A stretch of DNA of 64,000 bases from Thermoanaerobaculia bacterium (lineage in GTDB: Bacteria; Acidobacteriota; Thermoanaerobaculia; Multivoradales; Multivoraceae): assembly GCA_963664405.1 (NCBI GenBank), contig OY761158.1, forward strand, positions 899,020 to 963,019, read 5' to 3'. A program made the translations under genes and the position numbers. Below are positions 17,995 through 49,634 of this stretch, piece after piece (within the stretch, counting starts at the first letter, position 1; every line of letters begins with the position of its first letter). Under the pieces are notes generated by a model. The model was not told the origin of the DNA and made no database searches. It saw nothing but the letters and a program-made list of their open reading frames with translations.

Positions 17995-19299
17995 CTAGCG
18001 TAGATTCTCCATCGCATCCACCGCAACGTTCGCCAGGGCGCGCACACCGAGACTGAGCGCCCCTTCGTCGGCAAAGAAGTGGGGCGAATGGTTACGGGCG
18101 ACAGTGGCCGGATCGGCACCCTCGGGAGCGACGCCGAGGAAGAAAAAGACTCCTGGGATCTCCTGTTGGTAGTGCGAAAAGTCCTCAGCGGTGGTGGTCG
18201 GGTCGACCACCTGCGCCTTGCCCTTCCCAGCCACTCGCACCAGCGTCGGAGCGATCATACTGGTCAGCTCGGGATCGTTATAGGTGACCAGATTGCCCCC
18301 ACCGAAGCGAATCTCCGCGGTAGCTCCCGCGCTCGCCGCGATCGACTCCGCAGTACGCCGGATCCGACGGTGCAATTCCAAGCGCACTTCCGGATCGAAG
18401 GTCCGCACTGTGCCAACCATCTCCACCTTATCGGGGATGATGTTGCCCCGCACACCTCCATGGATACTCCCTATGGTGATGATCGAGGGTGTCCGGGTCA
18501 CGTCGACTTGACGACTGACGATACTCTGTAAGCCCAAGATAACTTGGGAGGAAACGACGATGGGATCCACCCCTCCCCAAGGCACGGCGCCATGGGTCTG
18601 CCGACCGTGAATAGTGATGTACAGAGAGTCGCTCGAAGCCATGATGCCGCCGCTCCTGTAGCCGAGGGTGCCCAGGGGATAGGGGAAGACGTGGAGGCCG
18701 AAGATCGCTTCGGGCCGCGGATCCTCGAGAGCGCCCTCGGCGATCATCAAACGGGCCCCTCCCTTCTCTCCCCGCGGCGCCCCTTCCTCGGCGGGCTGAA
18801 ACAGAAACTTCACCGAGCCTCTCAAATGCTCGCGAAGGCCGCTCAGAACCTCTGCAACCCCCATCAAGATCGCCAGGTGCTGGTCGTGCCCGCAGGCGTG
18901 CATGACCCCGACCTCACGGCCCTCGTACATGGTTGTCTGGGTCGAGGCGAACGGCAGATCCACGAGCTCCGTTACCGGTAAGGCATCCATATCGGCACGC
19001 AGCGCGATCACCGGACCTTCCTCGCCGCCGCGAAGCAGCCCCACCACACCGGTGTGAGCGACCTCGGTGCGCACTTCAAGCCCCAGGGCCTCGAGATGCT
19101 CCGCGACTTTGCGCGCGGTGCGGACCTCACGATTGCTGAGCTCCGGATGGCGATGAAAGTCTCGACGCCACAAAACGACCTTCGCTTCGATCTCGGCCGT
19201 CAAACGGTCTATCTCACTTGCGAGGTCGGCGGCTCCGACCGGCAGAGCAGCCAGGCAAAGAGCGGCAACTAGACCAGCGTTTCCAAAGTTCGCGCACAT
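17995..19299 (-). CDS. M20-family amidohydrolase (peptidase M20D, hippurate hydrolase-like); the annotated start codon and first about 10 codons lie inside a MITE
   Basis: ...RRDFHRHPELSNRE...LRADMDALPV...HACGHD... are M20D signatures. The only in-frame ATG upstream of the signal peptide (LVAALCLAALPVGAA) is MCANFGNAGL, encoded by the MITE terminal repeat. Confidence 0.75.
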   Translation of the reverse strand: MCANFGNAGLVAALCLAALPVGAADLASEIDRLTAEIEAKVVLWRRDFHRHPELSNREVRTARKVAEHLEALGLEVRTEVAHTGVVGLLRGGEEGPVIALRADMDALPVTELVDLPFASTQTTMYEGREVGVMHACGHDQHLAILMGVAEVLSGLREHLRGSVKFLFQPAEEGAPRGEKGGARLMIAEGALEDPRPEAIFGLHVFPYPLGTLGYRSGGIMASSDSLYITIHGRQTHGAVPWGGVDPIVVSSQVILGLQSIVSRQVDVTRTPSIITIGSIHGGVRGNIIPDKVEMVGTVRTFDPEVRLELHRRIRRTAESIAASAGATAEIRFGGGNLVTYNDPELTSMIAPTLVRVAGKGKAQVVDPTTTAEDFSHYQQEIPGVFFFLGVAPEGADPATVARNHSPHFFADEGALSLGVRALANVAVDAMENLR

Positions 19300-19434
19300 A
19301 TCTCGGGCCCTTCTGCCCGCTGGCGTCGTTACGCCTCCTCGACATATTGCCCAATATGCCTGCGTCAGCGCGCCTAGCCAGCGAACAGAATGACCTCGAG
19401 CTATGCAGCACGAACTTTGGAAACGCTGGTCTAG
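19269..19434. mobile_element. MITE copy a (166 bp) with about 24-bp terminal inverted repeats CTAGACCAGCGTTTCCAAAGTTCG...CGAACTTTGGAAACGCTGGTCTAG
   Basis: About 90% identical to the copies at 46999-47163 and 48683-48846. It is perfectly bounded by CTAG and lies between the glpK stop and the M20 start. Confidence 0.75.
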
Positions 19435-19464
19435 TGCCCAGGCGTACTTTCTCAGAGCCGGCAT

Positions 19465-20961
19465 TTAAGGCGCGGCCCAAGACCGGGATCGATTCACCGC
19501 ATCGTGCCAGCGATCCACCAGGCCTTTGCGAGTCTTGGGTCTCATATGGGGGCGAAACTGGCGATCAAGCAACCAATTCTTCTCGACGTCACTCTTGCTC
19601 TTCCAGAATCCAACGGCGAGACCGGCAAGATAGGCGGCCCCCAAGGCCGTGGTCTCAGAGACAACGGGACGGCGCACAGTCCGGCCAATGATGTCGGATT
19701 GAAACTGCATCATCAGATCGTTGGTCGAGGCGCCCCCGTCGACGCGCAGCTCACGCAACCGAACTTTGGAGTCACGCTCCATCGCATCGACGACATCACG
19801 CGACTGATAGCACATCGATTCGAGCGTGGCGCGGGCGAGATGCTCGCGAGTCGTGCCGCGCTCGATACCGACGATGACGCCACGCGCGTAGGGGTCCCAG
19901 TAGGGAGTGCCGAGGCCGACAAAGGCAGGCACGAAGAAGACGCCGCCATTGTCCGGGACCGCCGACGCCAGCCGTTCGACATCACTCGACTTGCGCAGGA
20001 TTCGGAGCCCGTCGCGCAGCCATTGCACCGCCGCCCCAGCGACGAATACCGAGCCCTCGAGACAATAAGTCACCTTCCCGTCGACGCCCCAGCCGATGGT
20101 AGTGAGCAACCCGTTCTTGGAGCGCACCGCCTTCGGCCCCGTGTTCATGAGCACAAAGCATCCGGTGCCATAGGTGTTCTTCACCATTCCCGGTCTAAAG
20201 CACCCCTGTCCAAAGGTGGCGGCCTGCTGGTCCCCCGCGATACCCGCGATCGTAATGGGCTCAGAAAAGAGCTTGGCTTCGGTTTCACCGAAGGGGCCGC
20301 TCGACTCTCGCACCTGGGGCAGCATCTCCACAGGAACCTCAAGGATCTTCAGCAGTTCTCGATCCCACTCGAGAGTATTGATGTTGAAGAGCAAAGTACG
20401 GCTGGCATTGGAGAGGTCGGTGGCGTGCACACGACCGCCGGTCAACCGCCACAACAGGAAAGTGTCGATCGTGCCGGCTAGAATCTCGCCCTTCTCAGCC
20501 CGCCGCCGAAGGCCGCGACTGCGGTCGAGGAGATACTTGATCTTGGTACCGGAGAAGTACGGATCGAGAACCAGCCCTGTTTTACGCTGGAACTTGCCCT
20601 CCAGACCCTGATCCTTGAGTCGAGCGCAAATCGGCGCCGAGATCCGACTCTGCCAGACGATCGCATTGCTCACCGGTCGGCCGCTGGCCTTCTCCCATAA
20701 GACAACGGTCTCGCGCTGATTGGTGATACCGATCGCAGCGACATCTCGGGCCTGCGCCTTGGCCTTCCTCAGTGCCGCACGAGCCGTGGAGAGCTGGGTG
20801 CGCCAGATCGCTTCAGGGTCGTGCTCGACGTGACCGGGCGACGGAAAGAGTTGAGGAAACTCCCGCTGGGCACTCGCGACCGCCCGCCCCCTGCGATCGA
20901 ACAAGATGGAACGGCTGGAGGTTGTTCCCTGATCGAGAGCGAGAATGTAGCGCGCCCGCAT
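19465..20961 (-). CDS. glpK: Glycerol kinase
   Basis: 498 aa. ILALDQGTTSSRSILFD..., ...ITNQRETVVLWEK... and FGGY family C-terminal signatures. Confidence 0.9.
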   Translation of the reverse strand: MRARYILALDQGTTSSRSILFDRRGRAVASAQREFPQLFPSPGHVEHDPEAIWRTQLSTARAALRKAKAQARDVAAIGITNQRETVVLWEKASGRPVSNAIVWQSRISAPICARLKDQGLEGKFQRKTGLVLDPYFSGTKIKYLLDRSRGLRRRAEKGEILAGTIDTFLLWRLTGGRVHATDLSNASRTLLFNINTLEWDRELLKILEVPVEMLPQVRESSGPFGETEAKLFSEPITIAGIAGDQQAATFGQGCFRPGMVKNTYGTGCFVLMNTGPKAVRSKNGLLTTIGWGVDGKVTYCLEGSVFVAGAAVQWLRDGLRILRKSSDVERLASAVPDNGGVFFVPAFVGLGTPYWDPYARGVIVGIERGTTREHLARATLESMCYQSRDVVDAMERDSKVRLRELRVDGGASTNDLMMQFQSDIIGRTVRRPVVSETTALGAAYLAGLAVGFWKSKSDVEKNWLLDRQFRPHMRPKTRKGLVDRWHDAVNRSRSWAAP

Positions 20962-46168: not shown

Positions 46169-47002
46169 ATGGCGGTATTCAACGCGCTCGTAAGGCGCCT
46201 CATCGACGCCCTCTTGGGGCCGTTCCAAAACTACCCGGCGATGGTGACTCTGCTGCCGATCTCGGTGGTGGTCACCGTTGCCGCGCTGTTGGTGCTCAAG
46301 CGAACCTCGAACCAGGAGGCTCTCAACCGCGTCAAGGCGAAGACGCACGCCGGCATCTTCGAGATCAGGCTCTTCAACGACGATCTGAGGGCCATCTTCT
46401 CGGCCCAACGGAACATCTTGGTTCAGGTAGCAAAGCAGATCGGCCTGACCCTAGTGCCCCTGCTGTGGATGCTAGTGCCGATGGCCGTCCTCCTCCCTCA
46501 GCTCCAATTCCAGTACGGCTACCTTGGCATCGAGCCCGGCGAGCCGGTGCTCCTCATCGCCACCCTCGACGCACCGCTGGGAGCCGACGAGACGAAGCCG
46601 GTCTTTCACCTCGAGACCCCCACCGGCGTTCGCGCGGAGACGGGGCCAATCTGGGTGCCCGCCAAGAACGAGCTGGTGTGGCGCCTGGTGGCGGATGAGC
46701 GCGGCAGCTTTGAGCTCTTGATCGTCGATGGCGGGGGAGGTAAGTCGGTCACCAAGAGCCTGGAGGTCTCGGACCAGATCCGAAGGCGCTCGCCGAAGAG
46801 GGTTACCGGCTTCTGGTCCCAAATCGCCTACCCCGCCGAGTCCCCGCTGCCGCCCGGTGCGCCTTTTCGGGAGATCTCCCTCGCCTACCGAGACGCAGAA
46901 GTCAGCTTTTTCGGCTGGGAGACCAACTGGATGATCGCCTTCCTCCTGCTCACCCTCGTCTTCGCCTTTGCCCTACGCGGGCCCCTTGGCGTCACCTTCT
47001 AG
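46169..47002 (+). CDS. Hypothetical membrane protein; its stop codon TAG is the terminal CTAG of a MITE
   Basis: 277 aa with several hydrophobic segments. It starts 12 nt after the small RHH-like gene. Confidence 0.55.
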   Translation: MAVFNALVRRLIDALLGPFQNYPAMVTLLPISVVVTVAALLVLKRTSNQEALNRVKAKTHAGIFEIRLFNDDLRAIFSAQRNILVQVAKQIGLTLVPLLWMLVPMAVLLPQLQFQYGYLGIEPGEPVLLIATLDAPLGADETKPVFHLETPTGVRAETGPIWVPAKNELVWRLVADERGSFELLIVDGGGGKSVTKSLEVSDQIRRRSPKRVTGFWSQIAYPAESPLPPGAPFREISLAYRDAEVSFFGWETNWMIAFLLLTLVFAFALRGPLGVTF

Positions 47003-47163
47003 ACCAGCGTTTCCGAAGTTCGCGCACAGTTCTCGGCCCCTTCTGCCCGCTGGCGGCGTTGCGCCTCCTCGACATAGTCCCTGCTATGCCTGCGTCGGCG
47101 CGCCTTGCCAGCGAACAGAATGACCTCGAGTTCTGTACACGAACTTCGGAAACGCTGGTCTAG
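46999..47163. mobile_element. MITE copy b (165 bp)
   Basis: ctagaccagcgtttccgaagttcg...cgaacttcggaaacgctggtctag. Same family as 19269-19434 and 48683-48846. Confidence 0.75.
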
Positions 47164-48682: not shown

Positions 48683-48846
48683 CTAGACCAGCGTTTCCAA
48701 AGTTCGCGCACATATCTCGGCCCCTTCTGTCCGCTGACGGCGTTTCGCCTCCTCGACATATTGCCAATATGCCTGCGTCGGCGCGCCTGGCCAGCGAACA
48801 GAATGACCTCGAGCTATGTATACGAACTTTGGAAACGCTGGTCTAG
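48683..48846. mobile_element. MITE copy c (164 bp)
   Basis: ctagaccagcgtttccaaagttcg...cgaactttggaaacgctggtctag. Its last CTAG supplies the TAG stop of the minus-strand gene 48843..49487. Confidence 0.75.
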
Positions 48847-49487
48847 TCAATCGCGAAGCAGTAGAAGTACCCGTTGCCGCCAGTTCCCTGCAAATCCTTC
48901 TGACCGCAGGCCCGGCTCCCATGAGCCGAGTTCCACGACGACGGTACCTGTCCGCCCCCTTGGCGATCATGGTGGCCGACCTGCGCACTGCCGGCACCGT
49001 TCGTTGTCCAGTTGCTGCAGGTGTGATCTTTGCCGTCGGTGAAACGGGTCCCATCCAACTGGGACCCGGTCAAGATGTCGTGCATATTGGGATCATCACC
49101 CCGGCCGTTGACAACCTCGCCCTTTTCATTGAGCTGCGTCTCTTTGGTGAGACCTACGTTCGAGTAGTGCAGCTCGCTGACGTTGGCGGCAACCTGCGCT
49201 CCCTTGGCATTGAACCAGGGCCCTGAACCGATGCGGCCTCTGGCATCGACCCCTCCGGAGCCACCCGTGCTCAAATAAGCGTGCCATGTCTTGGCGCCGC
49301 CACCCGCAGCCTTCGCCAACATGGCGCAGTGTCGGTCGGCCCCATCGAGCCCCCCGAGGTTGGCACCGTCACCCGACCCCCGGCTGGTAATGAAGAAACT
49401 CATCGCACCCTTCTCCTGCGAGAGAACGGGCGAAGCCGCCACTGCCAATATCGTTCCAACAAGTAGACATCTGATCTCGACCTTCAT
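48843..49487 (-). CDS. Secreted Gly/Asn-rich protein of unknown function
   Basis: Start trimmed to MKVEIRCLLVGTILAVAASPVLSQE, a signal peptide. The rest is low-complexity Gly-rich with conserved Cys residues. Confidence 0.55.
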   Translation of the reverse strand: MKVEIRCLLVGTILAVAASPVLSQEKGAMSFFITSRGSGDGANLGGLDGADRHCAMLAKAAGGGAKTWHAYLSTGGSGGVDARGRIGSGPWFNAKGAQVAANVSELHYSNVGLTKETQLNEKGEVVNGRGDDPNMHDILTGSQLDGTRFTDGKDHTCSNWTTNGAGSAQVGHHDRQGGGQVPSSWNSAHGSRACGQKDLQGTGGNGYFYCFAID

Positions 49488-49634
49488 CGGTTTTCCTCCA
49501 CACTCCTCATCATACGGGTTCCGGGGTCTGCTAGCCACGAGCCTCACTCCGGAAGGATAGCCTAGCTCACCCATCGACCTCTACCGGCATACAATGCGTT
49601 CTCTCCCAAGCTTCCGACAGGAGGAAGAGATCTC

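Follow-up and report, generated by a model that had tools for sequence, protein, structure and literature searches.

In-frame insertion of an IS630-type miniature element into the signal-peptide region of an M20 amidohydrolase gene that retains its ancestral start codon next to glpK

Miniature transposable elements with inverted repeats (MITEs) that lie in frame within bacterial genes are already known, among them the Rickettsia palindromic elements (RPEs), ERIC, BOX and the Coxiella element QMITE1, and MITEs that supply promoters or RNase III sites are known as well (PMC10969869). In this study, we analysed a 64,000-nucleotide stretch of contig OY761158.1 from a Thermoanaerobaculia bacterium, which we call the window, in which a MITE (copy A) lies at the 5' end of a minus-strand gene for an M20 amidohydrolase, with the glycerol kinase gene glpK directly upstream on the same strand. 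We are confident that copy A is an IS630-type MITE inserted in frame in the part of the gene that encodes the signal peptide, and that the ancestral start codon has been kept, abutting the glpK stop codon. The locus is a further example of in-frame intragenic MITEs and not a new kind of system; what is particular to it is that the MITE lies between the n-region and the h-region of a predicted cleavable signal peptide, leaving two candidate starts.

Like RPEs, ERIC, BOX and QMITE1, copy A is a short palindromic mobile element that occupies a coding gene in frame and stop-free while the host open reading frame (ORF) stays intact, and its canonical length amounts to a whole number of codons. However, RPEs occur in many genes, whereas only one of the 17 distinct complete copies of the present element, copy A, lies inside a recognisable gene. 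RPEs are also kept in the mature protein, whereas the M20 insert lies upstream of the predicted signal-peptidase site and would be removed, and they have no known parent, whereas the M20 element comes from an IS630-type transposon. The likeness to IS630 and Tc1-mariner elements lies in the terminus, which is identical over 24 nt to an IS630-family element end, and in the TA within CTAG found at every copy; the differences are that the MITE is 160 bp, carries no transposase gene and has an autonomous partner found only in an alphaproteobacterial metagenome-assembled genome (MAG). The Correia elements of Neisseria are likewise MITEs that are co-transcribed with their neighbours, form a long RNA hairpin and can alter downstream expression, but their effects come from promoters of their own, from IHF sites and from cleavage by RNase III, all in untranslated regions, whereas the M20 element lies within coding sequence and no promoter was found. 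Autotransporters have an extended signal peptide region with a long n-region, and such extensions are conserved, with evolved functions. A precursor read through copy A would similarly have a long basic N-terminal extension before a normal core and cleavage site, but in the M20 gene this extension would be a recent accident encoded by a mobile element.

The M20 protein matched the amidohydrolase model TIGR01891 (8.8e-98, 327.8 bits, cut-off 153.75), the M20 catalytic domain PF01546 (133 bits, cut-off 24.6) and the dimerisation domain PF07687 (41.6 bits, cut-off 21), and glpK (19465..20961, minus strand) matched NF000756 (6e-235). To reconstruct the ancestral state, we used as relatives the two other proteins in the 90%-identity cluster of the database protein P0001, namely P0121 and P0122, encoded at loci L008-L011 from four samples and ~98% identical to the window in these genes. 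All four loci share a neighbourhood of GFO/IDH/MocA oxidoreductase, glpK, M20 and VWA protein, and DNA alignment showed that the MITE is absent from each of them. P0121 (435 aa) begins MPALRKYVPGVVVALCLAALPVGAVDL and P0122 begins MLALRKYARAVVVALCLAPPVGAADL; from the homologous ATG, the relatives read MPALRKYVPG or MLALRKYARA and the window reads MPALRKYAWA. At the empty site, the relatives have ...AAGTATG(C/T)CC(C/G)GG(G/C)A GTAG T(T/C)GTCGCT..., and at the same site the window has ...AAGTACGCCTGGGCA CTAG[...]CTAG TTGCCGCT... The insertion point lies after codon 10/11 of M20, within the signal-peptide coding part, where a window-specific change from GTA to CTA at codon 11 makes the CTAG that houses the MITE. 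When 162 bp are taken out of the window, a 435-aa protein beginning MPALRKYAWALVAALCLAALPVGAADL... results, equal in length to P0121. The initial annotation had named, as an outcome that would refute its reading, orthologues with a different N-terminus interrupted at this place and the gene inactivated; the orthologous N-termini, MPALRKY in P0121 and MLALRKY in P0122, are indeed interrupted here, but inactivation does not follow.

We then translated the minus strand from 19470 to 19150. The translation, a stop followed by MPALRKYAWALDQRFQSSCCIARGHSVRWLGALTQAYWAICRGGVTTPAGRRARDMCANFGNAGLVAALCL..., is stop-free through the whole MITE, so that a second in-frame ATG is available at 19464. This ancestral ATG and the first 10 codons (MPALRKYAWA; 19435..19464, minus strand), identified by the homologous ATG of the relatives, are split from the gene body by the MITE. 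The ATG (19464-19462) directly abuts the TAA stop of glpK (19467-19465), giving TAAATG, and lies 165 bases upstream of the ATG inside the MITE (19297..19299, minus strand), still in frame with it. The longest M20 ORF, which opens at the ancestral ATG and includes the MITE, therefore encodes 489 aa (17995..19464, minus strand), with the family match beginning at about residue 85. The public annotation of the source genome, P0001, is the 434-aa form (17995..19299, minus strand), 100% identical, located on a 6.78-Mb contig and starting at the MITE-internal ATG. The M20 stop codon at 17995 itself sits within a CTAG. As a separate observation, the junction of glpK and M20 reads TAAAATG, with one extra A, in all four relatives.

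The initial annotation had described the MITE at the 5' end of the gene, the in-frame ATG inside it that gives MCANFGNAGL, a hydrophobic signal segment (LVAALCLAALPVGAADL) beginning exactly at the MITE boundary, and a possible displacement of the original start. All of these hold, the ancestral ATG being now on the far side of the element. Its statements that the MITE-internal ATG is the only one in frame, and that no ATG, GTG or TTG precedes the first M20 block, proved incorrect, since the ancestral ATG lies in a frame that is open across the MITE, and in-frame TTG codons at 19203-19201 (codon 88) and 19173-19171 (codon 98), on the minus strand, precede WRRDFHRHPEL. Both TTG codons, which lie 3' of the signal peptide, were rejected as starts because they are inside the conserved N-terminal helix and their use would delete the signal peptide that homologues carry.

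The identity of copy A as a MITE was supported by its inverted repeats, its repeated terminus and the empty sites in relatives. Copy A spans 166 bp including the CTAG at each end (19269..19434), and an inverted-repeat search gave a terminal arm on the M20-body side (19268..19295) and another on the glpK side (19408..19435), each of 28 nt, 96% complementary and together enclosing 112 nt. The 24-nt terminus CTAGACCAGCGTTTCCAAAGTTCG was found six times in the window (at most 1 mismatch; three elements), against 0 expected in shuffles. By terminus match, the further elements are copy B (46999..47163, 165 bp, 89% identical to copy A) and copy C (48683..48846, 164 bp, 93% identity with copy A). All three can be aligned over their full length (89-93% identity) but share nothing in their flanks, which, together with the terminal repeats, indicates that the MITE is real. 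A search of 19000-19700 against Rfam gave no match at E<=1.

To place the element, we searched reference genomes for exact matches to the 24-nt terminus. The results showed complete 166-179-bp copies in Acidobacteriota and Vicinamibacteria MAGs and single ends in an alphaproteobacterial MAG (CAWDKL01; L002, L004, L005, L006). In L005/L002, the identical 24-nt terminus borders a 392-aa ORF that matches the IS630 family transposase model NF033545 (1.4e-60); the other end of this insertion sequence has only partial similarity to the MITE. The same terminus in an alphaproteobacterial MAG and in an otherwise acidobacterial MITE suggests a transposon family shared across phyla. In the window, tblastn gave no match to the IS630 transposase. 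According to PMC2170065, IS630-family elements insert at TA and duplicate it, and for the preference that IS630 shows for TA in CTAG its reference list cites Tenzen and Ohtsubo (1991). All three window copies have CTAG on both sides, and the empty sites in relatives have a single (C/G)TAG, which together identify the element as an IS630-type MITE of 160 bp plus a TA duplication. Duplication of TA and of CTAG look the same at the sequence level; if TA was the duplicated target, its two copies are at 19270-19271 and 19432-19433, and the 160 bp between them (19272-19431) are the element proper. For the gene, copy A means a net gain of 162 bp, equal to 54 codons, and it brings no stop into the M20 frame.

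This open frame appears to be a property of the element. We gathered 18 complete copies from the window, reference genomes and metagenomes, three of them in the 64-kb window and 15 in other loci; one contig was counted twice, leaving 17 distinct copies. A length of 166 bp was modal (11 of the 18), the window copies measuring 164-166 bp, and at this canonical length the element always adds 162 bp, that is, 54 codons. Only the phases CTA/G and xCT/AGx are open to a CTAG within coding sequence. In the copies used for phase analysis (the window copies, L001, L003, L018, L041, L048, L055, L058, L059 and L060), CTA/G was stop-free in both orientations in 8 of 10 distinct 166-bp copies, against 21% open in one orientation and 6% in both when the interiors were shuffled. 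Phase xCT/AGx was usually open too in the mRNA-sense orientation of copy A, and shuffles gave 1-6% for such combinations. A coding-compatible design is only suggested by these open phases, as the copies have shared ancestry. Copies other than copy A are intergenic or exactly at stop codons, and translations read through from them into the flanks do not resemble coding sequence on visual inspection. Both the length of 166 bp and the open frame are typical of the MITE family and not evidence of selection at the M20 gene; because the stop-free, in-frame state was brought by the element, it gives no evidence that selection held the gene open.

A broader idea is that the MITE family is harmless inside genes by design, as an acidobacterial counterpart of the Rickettsia palindromic elements. 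This may be argued from the addition of 54 codons and from CTA/G being stop-free in both orientations and xCT/AGx in one, but we consider it doubtful. If it were true, the M20 gene would be a live example, with the encoded peptide carried in the signal peptide and clipped off.

The signal peptide was assessed by Kyte-Doolittle profile and charge counts. The MITE sits between the charged n-region (MPALRKYAWA) and the hydrophobic core (LVAALCLAALPVGAA), which with the predicted signal-peptidase region occupies 19228..19272 on the minus strand, as placed by the Kyte-Doolittle heuristic only. The core and a predicted VGA/GAA cleavage site are common to all candidate forms and to the relatives. The n-region has a charge of +2 in the ancestral form, 0 from the MITE start and +7 over 64 residues in the read-through form by the same counts. 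The read-through n-region has GRRARD 12 residues before the hydrophobic core and no second hydrophobic segment. Because the predicted cleavage site (PVGA/A/D) is 3' of the insert, removal of the signal peptide would also take away the residues that the MITE encodes, with no change to the mature enzyme. On inspection, GRRARD was rejected as a Tat signal, having no S/T-R-R-x-F-L-K pattern and with its RR 12 residues from the hydrophobic core. A lipoprotein signal at AALC was likewise rejected, as Leu at -1 misfits the lipobox.

On balance, we favour translation from the ancestral ATG through the MITE to an exported enzyme, coupled to glpK. An IS630-derived non-autonomous element has inserted at CTAG in the signal-peptide coding part of the gene for this putatively periplasmic M20 enzyme, and in the proposed mechanism the gene would be transcribed from glpK, as in the MITE-free relatives. 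Ribosomes ending glpK would restart at the ancestral ATG, read through the MITE and melt its long hairpin, and the product would be a 489-aa precursor with an n-region lengthened to 64 residues (net +7). Signal peptidase would cut downstream of the insert, after ...PVGA(A), so that the peptide encoded by the MITE would be discarded and the mature enzyme would not differ from that of the relatives. Loss of the MITE peptide with the signal peptide, leaving the mature enzyme unchanged, would explain why the insertion is tolerated.

Evidence on transcription came from the relatives and from consensus scans. In the MITE-free relatives, M20 starts 1 nt after glpK, so the gene is expected to be co-transcribed with glpK and to need no promoter of its own. 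Neither strand of 19100-19700 gave a promoter-like site in a scan that covered sigma-70-type consensus sequences only, and a scan for terminators found no terminator-like site around the MITE. A transcript without the 5' arm of the MITE is therefore not expected. These results bear on the proposal, raised in the initial annotation, that the MITE brought a promoter. An outward-facing MITE promoter could drive M20 independently of glpK, as Correia elements can, and sigma-70-like promoters have been reported in several bacterial MITEs (PMC10969869). With the scan negative and the ancestral glpK stop and M20 start only 0-1 nt apart, so that no separate promoter is needed, we regard this as very improbable.

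To compare the candidate starts, we folded the RNA from 19480 to 19230 (251 nt), which gave -149 kcal/mol (z = -9.8). In this fold, the MITE makes up a single hairpin of about 75 bp over its whole length. The internal ATG is base-paired inside it, and so is GAAGG, which lies 9 nt upstream of that ATG, whereas the ancestral ATG precedes the base of the hairpin by 25 nt. Folded on its own, the 3' half of the element is unstructured (z = +0.9). Shine-Dalgarno duplex energies, computed for four candidate starts, were -5.0 kcal/mol at the internal ATG and -3.0 at the ancestral one; they do not discriminate, long window ORFs (median -4.45 kcal/mol) being little different from random 20-mers (-3.1 kcal/mol). 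The M20 starts of the relatives likewise have no Shine-Dalgarno sequence. The stop-start junction of glpK and M20, which is the necessary route of initiation in the relatives, is intact in the window and favours the ancestral ATG.

The MITE-internal ATG (19299-19297) could instead be the working start, giving a 434-aa precursor whose signal peptide, MCANFGNAGLVAALCLAALPVGAA, has its first 10 residues donated by the MITE. It is in frame 9 codons before the hydrophobic core and would give a signal peptide whose length is normal, with HPEL at residue 50, as the range of the homologues allows; the energy of its GAAGG is typical of window genes; gene callers picked it (P0001); and, with the 3' half of the MITE unstructured, it would be accessible in a transcript that is processed or begins internally. 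In the full transcript, however, the hairpin sequesters this ATG together with its GAAGG, the scan gave no promoter-like site in the MITE or close to it, and the start site would be occupied by ribosomes elongating from the upstream in-frame ATG. The resulting n-region also has no K or R, whereas a crude scan found at least 1 in 107 of 114 homologues. The internal ATG with its preceding GAAGG is, moreover, generic to the MITE subfamily, being found in copy C, L058, L007 and L060, and so does not represent an adaptation at the M20 locus. We therefore see it as a pre-existing feature of the subfamily that is at best a secondary start, and its use as the working start seems improbable.

We next considered whether the gene downstream of the MITE is intact. 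Its 434 residues are full length, all family models match, and no stop, frameshift or lost conserved motif was found. In a three-way comparison over the first 345 codons, the extent set by L011, there were 13 window-specific codon changes, 9 synonymous and 4 non-synonymous, with 2 of the 4 in the signal peptide. This pattern on the window branch fits purifying selection. The pairwise ratio of non-synonymous to synonymous substitution rates (dN/dS) against L008 was 0.32 for M20 and 0.06 for glpK, five times higher in M20. Separately, codons 8-13 of the signal peptide vary among all three relatives. Copy A has only 2 internal differences from the L058 copy of another metagenome (about 99% identical), and this, with the absence of the MITE from the ~98% identical relatives, suggests a young insertion. 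Because the insertion seems young, the intact gene and its substitution pattern cannot show that selection continued after it.

These data also bear on the possibility that a recent insertion impaired or silenced M20, because the 54-residue insert blocks export, or because the hairpin blocks translation or RNase III cleavage separates the start from the gene body. The youth of the insertion agrees with this, as do an open frame that comes with the element and so requires no selection to be kept, the very stable hairpin, the cleavage of Correia hairpins in mRNAs by RNase III (PMC10969869) and the higher dN/dS of M20 than of glpK. On the other hand, the 434 downstream residues carry no damage, on the window lineage 9 synonymous changes stand against 4 non-synonymous ones, half of the latter in the signal peptide, two usable in-frame starts remain, and the insert is hydrophilic and basic, without a second hydrophobic segment to mis-insert in the membrane. 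We judge impairment unlikely, though far from negligible. The choice posed in the initial annotation, between a new N-terminus with a promoter from the MITE and a silent gene, thus leaves out the best-supported reading, in which the intact ancestral ATG is in frame.

Several points weigh against read-through from the ancestral ATG. The n-region would have 64 residues, compared with a family median of 8, and may slow or block export. The internal ATG does have a weak Shine-Dalgarno-like GAAGG, at about the median energy for long window ORFs, and the start of the 434-aa form is the one taken by all gene calls in the protein collection, the 489-aa form being absent there. The near-perfect duplex of about 75 bp may stall ribosomes or be cut by RNase III, as is reported for Correia hairpins (PMC10969869). 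Finally, the insertion is perhaps too young for the intactness of the gene or its substitutions to bear on function.

The locus holds a lesson for annotation. The 434-aa database protein starts at a codon of a mobile element, with the ancestral start 165 bases upstream in frame, and gene callers or readers that stop at the first ATG beside the conserved part will misjudge such genes. It is also a clean natural case of a low-cost MITE in a coding region, comprising whole codons, no stop and a part that would be cut off after export. Since it combines two alternative starts with a highly stable hairpin in the mRNA and a signal peptide of unusual length, the locus is a possible test system that could show how far Sec signal peptides and translational coupling tolerate disruption.

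Further observations were made at the other MITE copies. The right-hand CTAG of copy C supplies the TAG stop of a minus-strand ORF (48843..49574). MITE-free relatives (L062:3566-3575 and L063) have a single CTAG at this site, which already holds the stop of that gene, indicating that copy C inserted at the stop-codon TA and regenerated the stop. Just left of copy C are 9 extra bases (TAGCTGGTC) that resemble the MITE terminus and could be a footprint. In copy B, the CTAG on the left contains the TAG that terminates a plus-strand ORF (46169..47002). At this CTAG, the relative L061 (4831-4900) has a MITE of the same family, truncated and in the opposite orientation, which suggests either that the site was used for insertion more than once or that an inversion took place. 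Downstream of its MITE, L061 has a gene for a 573-aa DDE_Tnp_1 transposase, and the remainder of the neighbourhood is on another contig (L062:149-1870). Across the window, CTAG is strongly under-represented: base composition predicts 218 sites and a Markov estimate 117, but only 57 occur, 6 of them as flanks of the three MITEs. On the minus strand of L001, upstream of its MITE (2812-2977), there is a second, degenerate stretch like the MITE-encoded peptide (…SFCSLSRSDEAGILGICRR…), which suggests a second, decayed MITE copy near the first.

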